Of a DNA stretch of 64,000 bases, positions 53,238 through 56,937 are shown in pieces. Under the pieces are notes generated by a model. It was not told the DNA's origin, did no database searches, and worked only from the letters and a program-made list of their open reading frames with translations. Numbering within the stretch: position 1 is the stretch's first letter; each line of letters starts with the position of its first letter. Source of the stretch: an uncultured Chloroflexia bacterium (GTDB lineage Bacteria; Chloroflexota; Limnocylindria; Limnocylindrales; CSP1-4); assembly GCA_963748625.1 (NCBI GenBank), contig CAVVJT010000010.1, forward strand, positions 640,001 through 704,000. The letters are read 5' to 3'. Both the position numbers and the translations under genes were made by a program.

Positions 53238-53503
53238 GCCGTGCACCCTCCGTCGATACGGACGCACCCGCGCCCAGCGGTGAGCGCGGCTCGGACCAGG
53301 CCGTTCCGCGGCACCCGGCGATCATCGCTGAGTGCTGCTTCCTTCCGGACCTGACACGGTTCACGAGTCGCCGCTGCGCGGGACCCGGTCCTCAACGTCG
53401 CGAACACCGTCGGCTCTCGAGAACGCCGACCTCGGGAGGGAATTCAGCCCTGCTGGAGCGGATTGCAGGTACAGGGCACCGCTAGTTCCCCGCCTAGCAC
53501 GGC
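53238..53503 (-). ncRNA. ffs: large (Alu-domain) bacterial SRP RNA
   Basis: TCAGGTCCGGAAGGAAGCAGC helix 8; 5' GCCGTGCTAGGCGGGGAACTAGCGGTGCCCTGTACCTGCAATCCGCT Alu; ends pair; TAGACT -10 at 53510-53515; upstream of dnaX. Confidence 0.92.
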
Positions 53504-53626
53504 GCGCAGAGTCTACCTTGGATCGTGCCCGGACAGAGCCGGGCGCGAGGAGGCGCGGACGGGCGCGAGGGTCGTGGGATGGGAGGTGTCCGCGGGGAGC
53601 AATGTGCTCGACCGGCGAAGAGGGGC

Positions 53627-53714
53627 TGGCGGAGAGGGCGGGATTTGAACCCGCGATGGGTTGCCCCATACCGCATTTCCAGTGCGGCGCCCTAGGCCAC
53701 TAGGCGACCTCTCC
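53627..53714 (-). tRNA. tRNA-Ser(GGA)
   Basis: 88 nt, long variable arm, loop CTGGAAA, GCCA end; TG-N-TATTCT upstream. Confidence 0.95.
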
Positions 53715-53731
53715 GCCGCCAAGAATAGCAA

Positions 53732-53757
53732 GACCCGACGAGTTGCCTCGTCGGGTC
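53732..53757 (-). terminator. hairpin between the tRNA-Ser genes
   Basis: GACCCGACGAG / CTCGTCGGGTC followed by TTGCTATT. Confidence 0.55.
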
Positions 53758-53774
53758 CATCAGCTGGGCACCTG

Positions 53775-53862
53775 TGGCGGAGAGGGTGGGATTCGAACCC
53801 ACGCTAGCTCTCGCTAGACCGCTTTTCGAGAGCGGCACCATCAACCACTCGGACACCTCTCC
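53775..53862 (-). tRNA. tRNA-Ser(CGA)
   Basis: 88 nt, long variable arm, loop CTCGAAA, GCCA end; TG-N-TATCCT upstream. Confidence 0.95.
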
Positions 53863-53951
53863 GCCGCGAAGGATAGCAAAGGCTTCGGGGCGTGCCGCGC
53901 GGGGCGATGCCGCGGAGCCCCATGGGACGCAGGCGGGTCCGAGGCCGGGGG

Positions 53952-55109
53952 TCAGGGCGTGCTGGCGTACGGGGCAGGCCACCGACGCATGGCGATGACC
54001 GCACCCACCGGCGTGGCGATCGCGGCCACCGCGAGCACGGCGGACACCGAGCCTGTCGCAGTCACCAGCGGCAGGCCCGCGGCGGCGACCAGGAGGGAGC
54101 CGACCGCGCCGGTGGCAAAGTGCAGGGCAGAGGCCGCCGCCTGGCGGTCCGGCGGAGCGGAGGCCAGCACGGCGGCGAGCGAGGGGAGCGCGGTCCAGGC
54201 GAACCCGGCCCCGAACAGCAGCCTTGCCGCGACAAGGAATGACGGCGTCGGGGCAAGGGCGGTGAGCAGGCCCGAGACCGCCAGGAGCAGGCCGGCGACC
54301 AGGAACATGCGCCGGCCACCGAGCACCCGCAGCACGACAGGCACAGCGAGGAAGGCGGGCACCTCGACGATCGTCCCCGCCGCGATCGCGAGGCCGATCT
54401 CCCAGCCGGAGCCACCGAGCTCCGCGATCCGCGGTCCGGTGAAGATCGTCGGGGCACTCGCGCCGGCGTAGACGACCGCGAGCGCGGCCAGGAACACTGG
54501 CGAGCGGCCCACCCCGGTCCGGACCGCACGGATCATGCTCTCGCCGCCGGCCTCCGCCAACCCGGTGCCCCGGCGCAGCTCGCTGCCCAGGCGCACGGCG
54601 ACCACCGCCGCCGTCGCGGCGCACAGGCCCGCCCCGAAAATCCCCGGCGCGGCCCATGCGAGTCCCGAGAAGGAGACGGCCGCCCCGACGATGAGGGCCG
54701 CAAGGATGTACCCGGTGGAGGCGCCGACCCGCACGCGTGCGTACTTGGTGCGACTCCCCTCGAACCGCGCCAGGGCCAGGGAGTCGGCGAGCGGCGCGAA
54801 CGCCGAGGACACCATCGACCAGGCGAGGAACGAGACGATCAGCACCCACAGCACGCCTGCGGCGTGGCCGAATGCCGCGGGCACGCCCGCCAGGAAGGCG
54901 ACCACGAGGATCCGCCTTCGTCCATGCCGGTCCCCAAGGCGTCCCCACGTGGGGGCGGCGATGAGCGTCAGGATCGCCGCTGCGGCGGCCAGCGGCCCCA
55001 CGAGCGCTGCCGGCAGTCCAGCGTTGATCAGGAGAACAGCCGCGAACGGACCGATCGCGCCATAGCTGGACCCGCGGAGCAGGAAGAGGGCGAGGAGGCG
55101 GAGCGTCAT
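53952..55109 (-). CDS. MFS transporter
   Basis: ~12 hydrophobic segments, motif A WGRLGDRHGRR; ATG at 55109. Confidence 0.88.
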   Translation of the reverse strand: MTLRLLALFLLRGSSYGAIGPFAAVLLINAGLPAALVGPLAAAAAILTLIAAPTWGRLGDRHGRRRILVVAFLAGVPAAFGHAAGVLWVLIVSFLAWSMVSSAFAPLADSLALARFEGSRTKYARVRVGASTGYILAALIVGAAVSFSGLAWAAPGIFGAGLCAATAAVVAVRLGSELRRGTGLAEAGGESMIRAVRTGVGRSPVFLAALAVVYAGASAPTIFTGPRIAELGGSGWEIGLAIAAGTIVEVPAFLAVPVVLRVLGGRRMFLVAGLLLAVSGLLTALAPTPSFLVAARLLFGAGFAWTALPSLAAVLASAPPDRQAAASALHFATGAVGSLLVAAAGLPLVTATGSVSAVLAVAAIATPVGAVIAMRRWPAPYASTP

Positions 55110-55134
55110 CTGCTGAGCCGTCGCGTGGGAGCGA

Positions 55135-55581
55135 TCAAGCCCCCACCGATGCCTCCTGGCCTGCAAGCTCCTCAGCCTCGGCGCGACAGATCCCGGAGAC
55201 CACCTCGAGGCGGCGCCCGAGGGCCGGGTGCCGGGCCAGCTGGACCACCGTGCCGGCAGCGCCCGAGACAGGATTCGGGGCGGCGTACACCAGCATTGCG
55301 GCATCACATTCGAGGAGGGCGCCAACGCACATGGGACAGGGCTCGAGGGTGGTGAAGATGGCGATGTCCGAGAGACGCGGCGTGCCGAGCTTGCGGGCGG
55401 CCTCGCGAAGCACCGCGACGACCGCGTGGGCGGTCGGGTCCGCGCCATCGCCCGCCGCACAGGACCCGCGGGCCACCATCGCGTCGTTGAGTACCGCCAC
55501 CGCGCCGACCGCAGGGGCACCCCGGGCGGCGGCGGCCCGGGCCTCCGCGAGCGCCTCCCCCATGAACAGCGCGTAGTTCAT
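55135..55581 (-). CDS. TadA-like deaminase-fold protein lacking catalytic Glu
   Basis: FMGEAL, VGAV, DPTAHAV, TLEPCPMCVGA, GAAGTV; next to tRNA-Ser/ffs/dnaX like tadA. Confidence 0.88.
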   Translation of the reverse strand: MNYALFMGEALAEARAAAARGAPAVGAVAVLNDAMVARGSCAAGDGADPTAHAVVAVLREAARKLGTPRLSDIAIFTTLEPCPMCVGALLECDAAMLVYAAPNPVSGAAGTVVQLARHPALGRRLEVVSGICRAEAEELAGQEASVGA

Positions 55582-55746
55582 GCAATCGATGATAACCACT
55601 TGGCCGTCGCGCTACGATGACCCTGAACCGTGCCGCATCCCCGGCGCAGCAAGCGCCGGCCCGCATCGTGGCGTGCGATGCGCGCTCCCGGACGGCACCT
55701 CGCTATCCCCCCGGCCGGCGGCCGGGGCCAACCGGAGCCTCCACGC

Positions 55747-56937
55747 ATGGCTGCACCCCAGCGCATCGGAATCCTGACCGGCGGCGGCGACGTCCCCGGC
55801 CTCAACGCGGTCATCAAGAGCGTCGTCTACCGGGCGACCGACCTCGGGTACGAGGTCCTCGGCATCCGCCGTGGCTGGGAGGGCCTGACCCACCAGCGCC
55901 GCAGTCCCGAGCTGGACCCGGAATACGTGCGGATCCTGGACCGGATCAACACCCGGACCATCGACCGGACCGGCGGCACGATCCTGCACTCCTCGCGCAC
56001 GAACCCGCGCAAGATGCGGGCGAAGTCCTTCCCCGCCTGGCTGGACCCGAAGACGGTCGCCGGCAAGGAGACCGCGGAAGGTGTCTTCGATCTCACCGAC
56101 CATGTCCTCGACACGATCGAGCACCTTGGCCTGACGCACCTCGTCACCATCGGCGGCGACGACACGCTCTCCTTCTCGTCCGTCCTCTACGGGCGCGGCC
56201 TGCCGCTCGTCGCGATCCCCAAGACGATGGACAACGACGTCAACGGGACCGAGTACTGCATCGGCTTCTCGTCTGCGATCACCCGGGCGAAGGAGGTCCT
56301 CAACCGCCAGCGCACGACCCTCGGGTCGCACGAACGCATCGGCGTGTTCCGCATCTTCGGCCGGGATGCCGGCTTCACTGCGCTCTACACGGCGTACGTG
56401 ACCAGCACCCGGGCGGTCATCCCCGAGTTCAACTACGACATCAAGGCCCTGGCGGAGGTGCTCAAGGAGGACCACCGCAACAACCCGTCGCGCTACGCCA
56501 TCGTGATCACCGCCGAGGGCGCGATGTGGGAAGGCGGCCACATGCAGGAGACGGGCGAGGCTGACGCCTTCGGACACCGGCACAAGATGAACGTGGGCGA
56601 GGTCCTCGCGTCGGAGCTCAAGAGCCTGACCGGCATCGAGTCGGTTGCGTCCGACCTCACCTACGACCTGCGCTCGGGCGAGCCGGACATGCTTGATTCG
56701 ATGGTCGCCTCGACCTTCGCCAACGTGGCGATGGACCTCATCCGTGACGGCATCGGCGGGCGCATGGTCGCCATCCGTGACGGCAAGTACAGCCACGTGT
56801 CCCTGGCCGAGACGGGCAAGCCGCCGCGCCGCGTCCAGCTCGACGCCTACGACCTGGAGCGCTTCCGCCCGAAGTACTCGGACAAGCTGGGCTCGCCGCT
56901 CCTGCTGACCCCGTCGCTGGGGCCGGTGGTCGACTGA
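55747..56937 (+). CDS. 6-phosphofructokinase, probably PPi-dependent
   Basis: GILTGGGDVPGLN, GGTIL, GGDD, PKTMDND (Asp/Lys signature of PPi-PFK). Confidence 0.9.
   Translation: MAAPQRIGILTGGGDVPGLNAVIKSVVYRATDLGYEVLGIRRGWEGLTHQRRSPELDPEYVRILDRINTRTIDRTGGTILHSSRTNPRKMRAKSFPAWLDPKTVAGKETAEGVFDLTDHVLDTIEHLGLTHLVTIGGDDTLSFSSVLYGRGLPLVAIPKTMDNDVNGTEYCIGFSSAITRAKEVLNRQRTTLGSHERIGVFRIFGRDAGFTALYTAYVTSTRAVIPEFNYDIKALAEVLKEDHRNNPSRYAIVITAEGAMWEGGHMQETGEADAFGHRHKMNVGEVLASELKSLTGIESVASDLTYDLRSGEPDMLDSMVASTFANVAMDLIRDGIGGRMVAIRDGKYSHVSLAETGKPPRRVQLDAYDLERFRPKYSDKLGSPLLLTPSLGPVVD

Follow-up and report, generated by a model that had tools for sequence, protein, structure and literature searches.

A tadA orthologue without the catalytic glutamate, conserved in Limnocylindria with tRNA-Arg(GCG) and probably retained as a pseudo-enzyme

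The tRNA adenosine deaminase TadA, which produces inosine at wobble position 34 (I34), is generally regarded as an enzyme with one purpose, present in nearly all bacteria; descriptions of its loss mostly concern the reduced Mollicutes. The Glu of the HAE motif is the proton shuttle, and a Glu-to-Ala change at the corresponding position inactivates yeast Tad2p (PMC8216470). In the eukaryotic subunit Tad3/ADAT3, an N-terminal domain that binds tRNA is essential, the C-terminal helix is shortened and the penultimate residue, an Asp, caps the zinc; the subunit works only with an active ADAT2 (PMC8216470). A survey of the deaminase fold lists Glu loss for eukaryotic Tad3 only (PMC3239186). In Mollicutes, the acquisition of tRNA-Arg(UCG) and the mutation of ACG to GCG went with the abandonment of A-to-I editing, and deaminase activity was proposed to have been reduced before the loss of tadA (Yokobori et al. 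2013, PMC3711424). Thermotogae and Spirochaetes are reported to have tRNA-Arg(GCG) for ACG (review, PMC8007984). Here we describe a tadA-derived gene, with HAV in place of HAE, found in a 64,000-nt stretch of DNA (hereafter the window) from an uncultured Chloroflexia bacterium, together with its orthologues and with the tRNA-Arg genes of the genomes that carry them.

The window (G000:C10:640001-704000) belongs to an assembly of 4.63 Mb, 71% GC and 98.3% complete. The gene and its diagnostic residues are located as follows:

55135-55581, minus strand: tadA-derived gene, HAV for HAE; intact open reading frame (ORF) of 148 aa, TGA stop at 55135-55137
55420-55422, minus strand: Val54 codon GTC at the position of the catalytic Glu (reverse complement of 'gac')
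55426-55428, minus strand: His52 codon, first zinc ligand, invariant in 59/59 aligned orthologues
55327-55341, minus strand: PCPMC, residues 81-85, with the zinc ligands Cys82 and Cys85, each invariant in 59/59

Residues H52-A53-V54 are encoded by CAC GCG GTC, and the TadA signature H-A-E...P-C-x-x-C, with its proton-shuttle Glu, is not found in the protein. The protein reads GAPAVGAV, to be compared with EVPVGAV of TadA; the loop following strand 2 is GSCAAG, devoid of Asn; PNPVSGAAG is found where TadA has D-x-K-x-GA; ALGRR replaces LNH, and the C-terminal FF is missing. All these departures had been listed in a preliminary description of the window, made from its letters and translated ORFs, and all are present in the window copy. 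The loss of the pocket Asn is, however, specific to this copy, where it is replaced by Cys: the congeners keep it (S-N-R-V), and other genera show H-D-R-V. The alignment with 8e2q, an engineered E. coli TadA variant, is gap-free (E. coli number = residue here + 5) and matches E59 with V54, N46 with C41, D108 with N103 and K110 with V105. N46, D108 and K110 are taken here as contacts of the anticodon loop. Of the contact set of TadA, the pocket Asn thus reads C41 in this copy, the Asp and the Lys of D-x-K-x-GA read N103 and V105, and the aromatic pair at the C-terminus (FF) is missing. In S. aureus TadA, Asp104 and Lys106 are named as contacts (PMC3711424).

When compared with family models, the 148-aa protein scores 63 bits with Pfam PF00383, the zinc-binding family of cytidine and deoxycytidylate deaminases, and 69 bits with MafB19-deam. 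Among NCBIfam models the highest score, 93.9 bits, is obtained with the TadA equivalog NF008113, under its cut-off of 150 bits; this cut-off is passed by just 5 of 151 genomes of the class, and canonical TadAs of the sister family score 137-157 bits. The likeness to bacterial TadA (E. coli, S. aureus, B. subtilis YaaJ) resides in the fold (TM-score 0.85-0.88), in the zinc ligands, in a 135-bit sequence match and in the position near ffs and dnaX, the B. subtilis order being yaaJ(tadA)-scr-dnaX (PMC10454642). The differences are the missing Glu, the score below the equivalog cut-off, the changed contact residues and a host without tRNA-Arg(ACG).

Orthologues were sought in the family of the host (f1), a family of the same order (f2), the sister family (f3), a family in another order of the class (f4) and family f5. 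The relatives are Chloroflexota of Candidatus Limnocylindria/Limnocylindrales, represented by metagenome-assembled genomes from soil, fen and freshwater. The catalytic Glu is absent from all of the 66 orthologues found in f1 (46) and f4 (20), being replaced by Val in 64 and by Leu in 2. HAV is present in 19/19 orthologous loci of the host genus, window copy included (one reads DPTSHAV), the other f1 genera have DPTAHAV in 27/27, and the f4 sequences are divided into 18 HAV and 2 HAL. By contrast, all the 29 proteins from f3 and f5 are canonical (DVPIGAV, N-R-R-E, HAE, PCxMCAGA, P-D-x-K-A-G-A, LNHHP, FF). The replacement of Glu by Val with retention of the zinc ligands, as read in the preliminary description, is therefore confirmed by the codons and by the orthologues, and its occurrence in 66/66 sequences means that it is not a sequencing artefact. 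The same description had stressed that GTC lies two changes away from GAG. This does exclude a miscall, but the evolutionary path is shorter: the codons at this site are GTG (34), GTC (29) and CTG (2) in the Glu-less group and GAG (26) and GAA (3) in canonical f3 genes, so that one transversion, followed by synonymous drift, is enough.

Tallies include some genomes flagged as unpublished: 1/27 in f1 (L050), 4/29 in f3 (L209, L211, L228, L233) and 3/30 f4 tRNA loci (L260, L277, L287). The results of the f1, f3 and f4 tRNA tallies hold without these loci; the dN/dS values, the codon and promoter tallies and the tree described below also include some of them.

The distribution of the Glu-less gene was also evaluated on a sample of the phylum, comprising 400 Chloroflexota genomes with a completeness of 80% or more. 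Matches with E <= 1e-36 were confined to f1 (20/23) and f4 (17/17); one further f1 match, at 7e-30, is a truncated copy at a contig end. The best matches in other families range between 1e-25 and 1e-29, and HAE was found in 20/20 of those fetched. Among the 150 best cluster representatives, 36 are HAV (35 besides the query) and 101 HAE. In f2, whose genomes are 1.0-1.4 Mb in size and 78-93% complete, the query protein had no match in 16 genomes and a TadA hidden Markov model none in 26; the syntenic interval, from tRNA-Arg to tRNA-Ser(CGA), holds what we take, from their translations, to be a dehydrogenase and a small PPOX-like ORF. An apparent gene loss in G090 was discarded as an assembly break, since only the first bases of the gene are left before the end of the contig.

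Genomic position identifies the Glu-less gene as the positional orthologue of tadA, of which it would be the vertical descendant. In 53 of the 66 HAV loci dnaX lies within about 1.5 kb, and in 20/20 f4 loci two tRNA-Ser genes directly follow the Glu-less gene; in f3 the gene order is the same, the HAE tadA being followed, after an insert of about 3.5 kb, by two tRNA genes, the signal recognition particle (SRP) RNA and dnaX in 3 of 4 loci of 16 kb. In a protein tree of 74 rows, the Glu-less sequences form one clade, with a Shimodaira-Hasegawa-like approximate likelihood-ratio (SH-aLRT) support of 99 and a stem of 0.81 substitutions per site.

Selection on the gene was evaluated as the ratio of non-synonymous to synonymous substitution rates (dN/dS), calculated pairwise by the NG86 method on 146 core codons. 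Median values are 0.18 within the host genus (171 pairs), 0.22 for the rest of f1 (325 pairs) and 0.24 for f4 (190 pairs), to be compared with 0.30 for the HAE TadA of f3 (406 pairs, of which the 401 with a dS under 1.5 were used). For the window copy against its 18 congeners, values range between 0.14 and 0.25. The alignment of 59 orthologues contains 32 invariant columns, including D48-P-T-A-H-A53, E80-P-C82, M84-C85 and G107/G110 of the GAAG loop, and new motifs are strongly conserved outside the pocket: N-terminal MNYELFMGEALAEA and VVSGIRRxEAEEL. The Glu-less gene is under purifying selection and is conserved as tightly as the active enzyme of the neighbouring family. The alternative foreseen in the preliminary description, of relatives carrying HAE and a copy under relaxed selection, is contradicted by these values and by the close relatives, all of which are HAV.

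The tRNA-Arg anticodons, ACG or GCG/TCG, had been indicated in the same description as informative. In the host, Aragorn predicted 59 tRNA genes, with CCT, TCT, CCG, GCG and TCG as credible tRNA-Arg anticodons; neither tRNA-Arg(ACG) nor any credible A34 tRNA was found among the 59 calls in this 98.3%-complete genome. The tRNA-Arg(GCG) gene is located at C10:708371-708446, 4.4 kb past the end of the window. Since GCG, UCG and CCG tRNAs are present, the CGN box is read wholly by ordinary pairing. The usage of Arg codons fits G34: CGC accounts for 51%, CGG for 34%, CGU for 7% and CGA for 4% (2031 reading frames with high GC at the third position). Three calls, 79-91 nt long, were judged to be false positives: the only A34 call, a 91-nt tRNA-Asp(atc) at C10:733199-733289 without canonical tRNA features, and two non-canonical tRNA-Arg calls, (cct) at C7:881143-881231 and (tcg) at C10:67828-67906.

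Among the families, the change of anticodon has the same limits as the loss of the active enzyme. In f1, 30/30 loci with a tRNA-Arg at least 96% identical to the host gene have GCG, 29 of them adjoining tRNA-Ser(GCT); in f4, GCG is found in 29/30 loci and TCG in one. In f2, 20/30 loci have GCG, in the arrangement Ser(GCT)-Arg(GCG)-1.3 kb-Ser(CGA), and the other ten have TCG, CCG, CCT or Lys; tRNA-Arg(ACG) was found in none of the 30. In f3, eight genomes gave tRNA-Arg(ACG), at 9 loci, and so did G212; the gene often lies beside tRNA-Arg(TCG). This f3 count is a minimum: the DNA search with the GCG tRNA (E <= 1e-12) matched 2/29 genomes, a D-arm pattern gave ACG in 8/29, a second pattern missed most g53 genomes, and a tRNA-Arg(ACG) query retrieved the ACG-TCG pair of G212 and nothing useful in G192 and G265. 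The anticodon loop is U32-U33-G34-C35-G36-G37-A38 in the GCG tRNA (host and G171) and C32-U33-A34-C35-G36-A37(or G37)-A38 in the three ACG tRNAs that were read. In G341, an outgroup member of Chloroflexota with HAE TadA, the tRNA closest to the GCG one has the anticodon ACG (83% identity).

The f3 genome G171, 97% complete, carries a tRNA-Arg GCG-TCG pair (G171:C26:58182-58350, L257/L395); no TadA was found there, the deaminases being a Cdd-type one and one unclassified PF00383 match. Its congener G212 has the ACG-TCG pair and an HAE TadA. G171 is a second, independent co-occurrence of G34 with an absent active TadA.

As far as gene content is concerned, the end state of CGN decoding is the same as in Mollicutes; there tadA is lost, whereas f1 and f4, free-living and with genomes of 2-4.6 Mb, keep a Glu-less version under purifying selection, and outright absence, as in Mollicutes, is seen only in the streamlined f2. 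Thermotogae and Spirochaetes, compared on the anticodon alone, show the same replacement over whole phyla.

The structure of the protein was predicted by AlphaFold from the alignment of 59 sequences, with a mean predicted local distance difference test (pLDDT) of 88.6 and a predicted TM-score of 0.87. The model has five strands and the long C-terminal helix (133-147) of the TadA fold; the last 8 residues, ending in ...SVGA, have a pLDDT of 63, and C-termini are not conserved across genera. The best Foldseek match is 7cph, B. subtilis TadA (TM-score 0.88), and 1wwr, 3ocq, 1z3a and 2b3j reach 0.84-0.85; ADAT2 gives 0.77-0.81 and the ADAT3 deaminase domain 0.78-0.79. In a profile search of PDB, TadA structures score 135-111 bits, guanine/guanosine deaminases 87-89, ADAT2 77 and ADAT3 69. 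Assignment to the GuaD-type guanine deaminases is contradicted by their 87-89 bits, against 135 for TadA, and by the absence of the Glu.

The preliminary description had likened the protein to Tad3/ADAT3. The likeness holds for the change of Glu to Val at the proton shuttle, for the retained zinc ligands and for the loss of TadA determinants of tRNA recognition, which ADAT3 shares (PMC8216470). It does not extend further: the protein is a single 148-aa deaminase domain, with no N-terminal ferredoxin-like tRNA-binding domain; the predicted C-terminal helix is not shortened and ...SVGA provides no penultimate acidic cap for the zinc; the profile score with ADAT3 is 69 bits, against 135 with TadA; and no obligate partner of the ADAT2 type is apparent, most of the f1 genomes searched being without a candidate; the host genome has no A34 tRNAs to serve. 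The resemblance to ADAT3 is a convergence, not a membership.

Potential partners were searched in the host genome by a PF00383 profile, which identified four genes, including the HAV gene and a RibD-like gene. One of the others, located at C2:209464-209790 (locus L001 1333-1884, minus strand), encodes a protein of 183 aa with HAE...PCPMC, whose C-terminus (...GRTPY) resembles that of guanine deaminases; it is the sole other HAE/PCxxC protein of that type in the genome. The second is a homologue of yeast-type cytosine deaminase (HGE...SPCDMC) at C2:165059-165337 and downstream (locus L002 1384-1995, plus strand). Their scores with the TadA model are 60 and 53 bits, respectively, and no second TadA-like gene was found in the genome by the PF00383 and TadA model searches. 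Past '...LLYGIP', the C-terminal part of the cytosine deaminase homologue is unlike that of its L029 and L036 orthologues ('...PRVVMGEN...'), which suggests a frameshift or an assembly error.

In the 60 other f1 genomes at least 90% complete, the number of PF00383 matches is one in 37, none in 2, two in 12, three in 5 and four in 4, in a search which misses weak RibD-type domains. Where cross-checked by coordinates, the single match is the HAV gene, with at least one exception (G120). Second deaminase matches to the query protein, counted by eye, occur in only about a fifth of the genomes of the family. An obligate active paralogue is unlikely, given the 37 genomes with one PF00383 gene.

The explanation towards which we lean is that a descendant of tadA lost its substrate, then its catalysis, and was kept for a non-catalytic role, likely the binding of RNA or of a nucleotide. 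The part of it held with good confidence is that the gene is a tadA orthologue, catalytically dead and retained under selection; the prediction that RNA or a nucleotide, specifically, is bound is a tentative one. Orthology by position and fold, the missing Glu, the absence of A34 tRNAs, the co-distribution with the GCG tRNA and purifying selection are shown by the data; we infer the lack of deaminase activity, the order of the events (A34 to G34, Glu to Val) and the binding function. In the common ancestor of f1, f2 and f4, the wobble base of tRNA-Arg would have changed from A34 to G34, giving the anticodon GCG. With CGN codons read by GCG, UCG and CCG tRNAs, inosine would no longer be needed and TadA would be left without a substrate. 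The proton-shuttle Glu could then have become Val by a single GAG-to-GTG change, and several TadA-specific contacts with the anticodon loop would have been replaced. The protein retained in f1 and f4 would be a pseudo-enzyme in which the TadA fold, the zinc site and the pocket residues (DPTAHA, EPCxMC, GAAG) are kept, as is argued from their persistence under purifying selection, and its role might be that of a zinc-containing binder of a nucleotide or of an RNA loop, without deamination. As conservation is highest at the zinc site and in the loops that line the pocket, a ligand-binding role is favoured; the simplest candidate ligand would be the anticodon loop, now remodelled, of tRNA-Arg(GCG), encoded in many cases a few kb away. 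The retained role would be dispensable in streamlined genomes, such as those of f2, in which no TadA gene was found. Of the two outcomes offered in the preliminary description, a TadA repurposed after the loss of A34-to-I editing is supported by positional orthology and purifying selection. The conserved, dead TadA probably has a second job.

Several observations weigh against this explanation. The case for a retained function is one of sequence, predicted fold and genome comparison, and the NG86 estimates on which it draws are rough at 71% GC and dS of 0.7-1.2. In the tree, whose deeper nodes are poorly resolved, the HAV clade and f3 TadA do not come out as sister groups, so that orthology rests on synteny. 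The window copy departs from the consensus at 4 of the 53 columns conserved at 95% or more (E4A, R42A, T74A, R134C), a count tied for the highest among the orthologues, yet of the same order as the rest. Neither net charge nor isoelectric point (pI) separates HAV from HAE proteins. The binding of a tRNA loop is weakened by the alteration of the contacts described in the literature: D108 is N in the window copy and in the f1 consensus (it is kept in that of f4), K110 is not conserved and FF is absent. The family f2 lives without the gene, and the role is therefore not essential. Finally, the f4 genome G203 has both an HAV gene beside dnaX (L309) and a canonical HAE TadA, on the 3.4-kb contig G203:C60 (L206/L301), which scores 184 bits, far above the other TadAs of the clade. 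The latter may be a contamination or a real second copy; if the contig is genuine, some members may have an active copy.

Other explanations were weighed on the same data. A scaffold reused for binding a protein, such as a translation or tRNA-processing factor, as a structural or regulatory partner without a nucleic-acid ligand, would account for the strong conservation of MNYELFMGEALAEA and VVSGIRRxEAEEL outside the pocket, for the lost TadA-specific RNA contacts and for the acidic character of the protein (pI about 5). It would leave the invariance of the zinc site and of the base pocket unexplained, no conserved protein-coding neighbour points to a partner, and we regard it as unlikely, if worth keeping in mind. 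The protein could still be an enzyme, a zinc hydrolase or deaminase acting on another substrate (a base, a nucleoside, an RNA site or a metabolite) with another residue, or the substrate itself, as the proton shuttle. Strong selection, the invariance or near-invariance of the zinc ligands, DPTAHA, EPCxMC and GAAG, and the Asp found in place of the pocket Asn in most f1 genera and f4 (H-D-R motif) are all in line with this. We know of no enzyme of the cytidine-deaminase fold working without the Glu, however; the pocket Asp is not conserved, as congeners have Asn and the window copy Cys, there are no conserved metabolic neighbour genes, and ADAT3, with the same substitution, is inactive (PMC8216470). 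Such an activity is accordingly judged improbable.

The other outcome offered in the preliminary description was a heterodimeric deaminase, with the HAV protein as an inactive subunit like Tad3/ADAT3 and an active paralogue elsewhere. The shared Glu-to-Val change, the dimeric nature of TadA enzymes and the second HAE...PCPMC protein encoded at G000:C2:209464-209790 speak for it, but this paralogue, the only one to emerge from the search for an active TadA, is guanine-deaminase-like and reaches 60 bits with the TadA model, the genome is without A34 tRNAs, and, among 60 near-complete f1 genomes, PF00383 matches one gene only in 37 and none in two. Together with the missing ADAT3-type N-terminal domain and the uncapped zinc site, these data make a heterodimer very improbable. 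Even less credit is given to gene decay, or to an artefact of assembly or sequencing, which the data already refute: the four changed columns of the window copy and its score under the equivalog cut-off could be read in this way, but the ORF is intact, the change recurs in all 66 orthologues of two families, dN/dS is about 0.2 and the start-proximal -10 element is conserved.

A second lineage with the same replacement emerged from the cluster representatives. P0115, an HAV representative of a separate group, has among its 120 closest relatives 112 HAE and 6 HAV proteins; the HAE members include the named TadA of Rhodothermus marinus, Longibacter and Rhodothermaceae. The HAV (DPTAHAV) proteins of this Rhodothermales-like group (P0115, P0152, P0154, P0159, P0163, P0180) are metagenomic, and some keep all other TadA motifs. 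Judged from these sequences, the change looks like a recent, independent one in another phylum-level lineage. When metagenome contigs were scanned with P0152, 80 loci were obtained, none above 59% identity; 60 are HAE, 20 have no motif match and none is HAV. A wider reading, regarded as doubtful, would be that TadA has a second, non-catalytic recognition of the anticodon loop, of RNA or of a nucleotide through its zinc pocket, kept through the history of the two families, and that a Glu-to-Val 'reader' arose at least three times (Limnocylindria, the Rhodothermales-like group, ADAT3). If this were true, these would be the first stand-alone bacterial pseudo-deaminases, and a system for finding TadA roles beyond I34.

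No published description of a Glu-less bacterial TadA, or of the tRNA-Arg set of Limnocylindria, was found in openly accessible article texts. A free-living clade of soil and freshwater with the ACG-to-GCG switch, which keeps a dead TadA and has a streamlined sister family without a TadA gene found, would offer a natural experiment on the abandonment of wobble-inosine decoding, evidence for a selectable function of the TadA scaffold apart from deamination, and, in bacteria, a counterpart of the way in which the inactive ADAT3 subunit arose. Annotation is concerned as well. The Joint Genome Institute (JGI) names relatives in the Rhodothermales-like group 'tRNA(adenine34) deaminase'; if the Glu-less proteins described here are named likewise, I34 capacity would be wrongly inferred for a class-level clade.

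The remaining features of the locus, all on the same strand as the tadA-like gene, are the following:

55589-55594, minus strand: TATCAT, hexamer of the -10 type located 7 nt before the ATG; candidate leaderless-mRNA promoter
53952-55109, minus strand: MFS (major facilitator superfamily)-transporter-like ORF, beginning 25 nt past the tadA-like stop
53775-53862, minus strand: tRNA-Ser(CGA), conserved downstream neighbour
53627-53714, minus strand: tRNA-Ser(GGA), conserved downstream neighbour
53239-53502, minus strand: SRP RNA (ffs), RF01854, 183 bits
51477-53267, minus strand: dnaX; the listed ORF start overlaps ffs by 29 nt

The order tadA-tRNA-Ser-ffs-dnaX is as previously indicated, with the addition of the intervening ORF, which we presume to be of the MFS type from a reading of its translation. 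This ORF is probably co-transcribed with the tadA-like gene; compared with f4, in which that gene is directly followed by the tRNA-Ser genes, it represents an insertion. The true dnaX start is probably further downstream than the listed one, because of the overlap with the SRP RNA.

The suggestion of a leaderless-type promoter is in line with the TATCAT hexamer and with its common position in the orthologues: a TANNNT hexamer begins 12-13 nt before the start codon in 46 of 65, and 9-16 nt before it in 50 of 65. A generic sigma-70 scan, which needs a -35 element too, found no promoter, and no terminator, in 54900-55800. A search of sequencing runs with window positions 53500-56000 gave word shares of 0.19 at most, and of 0.06 for the one RNA run; the likeliest source of these small shares is the conserved sequence of the tRNA and SRP RNA genes.

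Two minor observations concern neighbouring or related sequences. The dnaX gene carries a long low-complexity linker rich in Pro, Ala and Thr. In the f3 contig G183:C30, the 16S rRNA match spans 1761 nt (L312 342-2102), against 1533 nt of the model, and a group I intron match (RF00028, 58.8 bits, L312 19-373) is found at its 3' side, which suggests a possible intron or insertion in or beside this rRNA gene.

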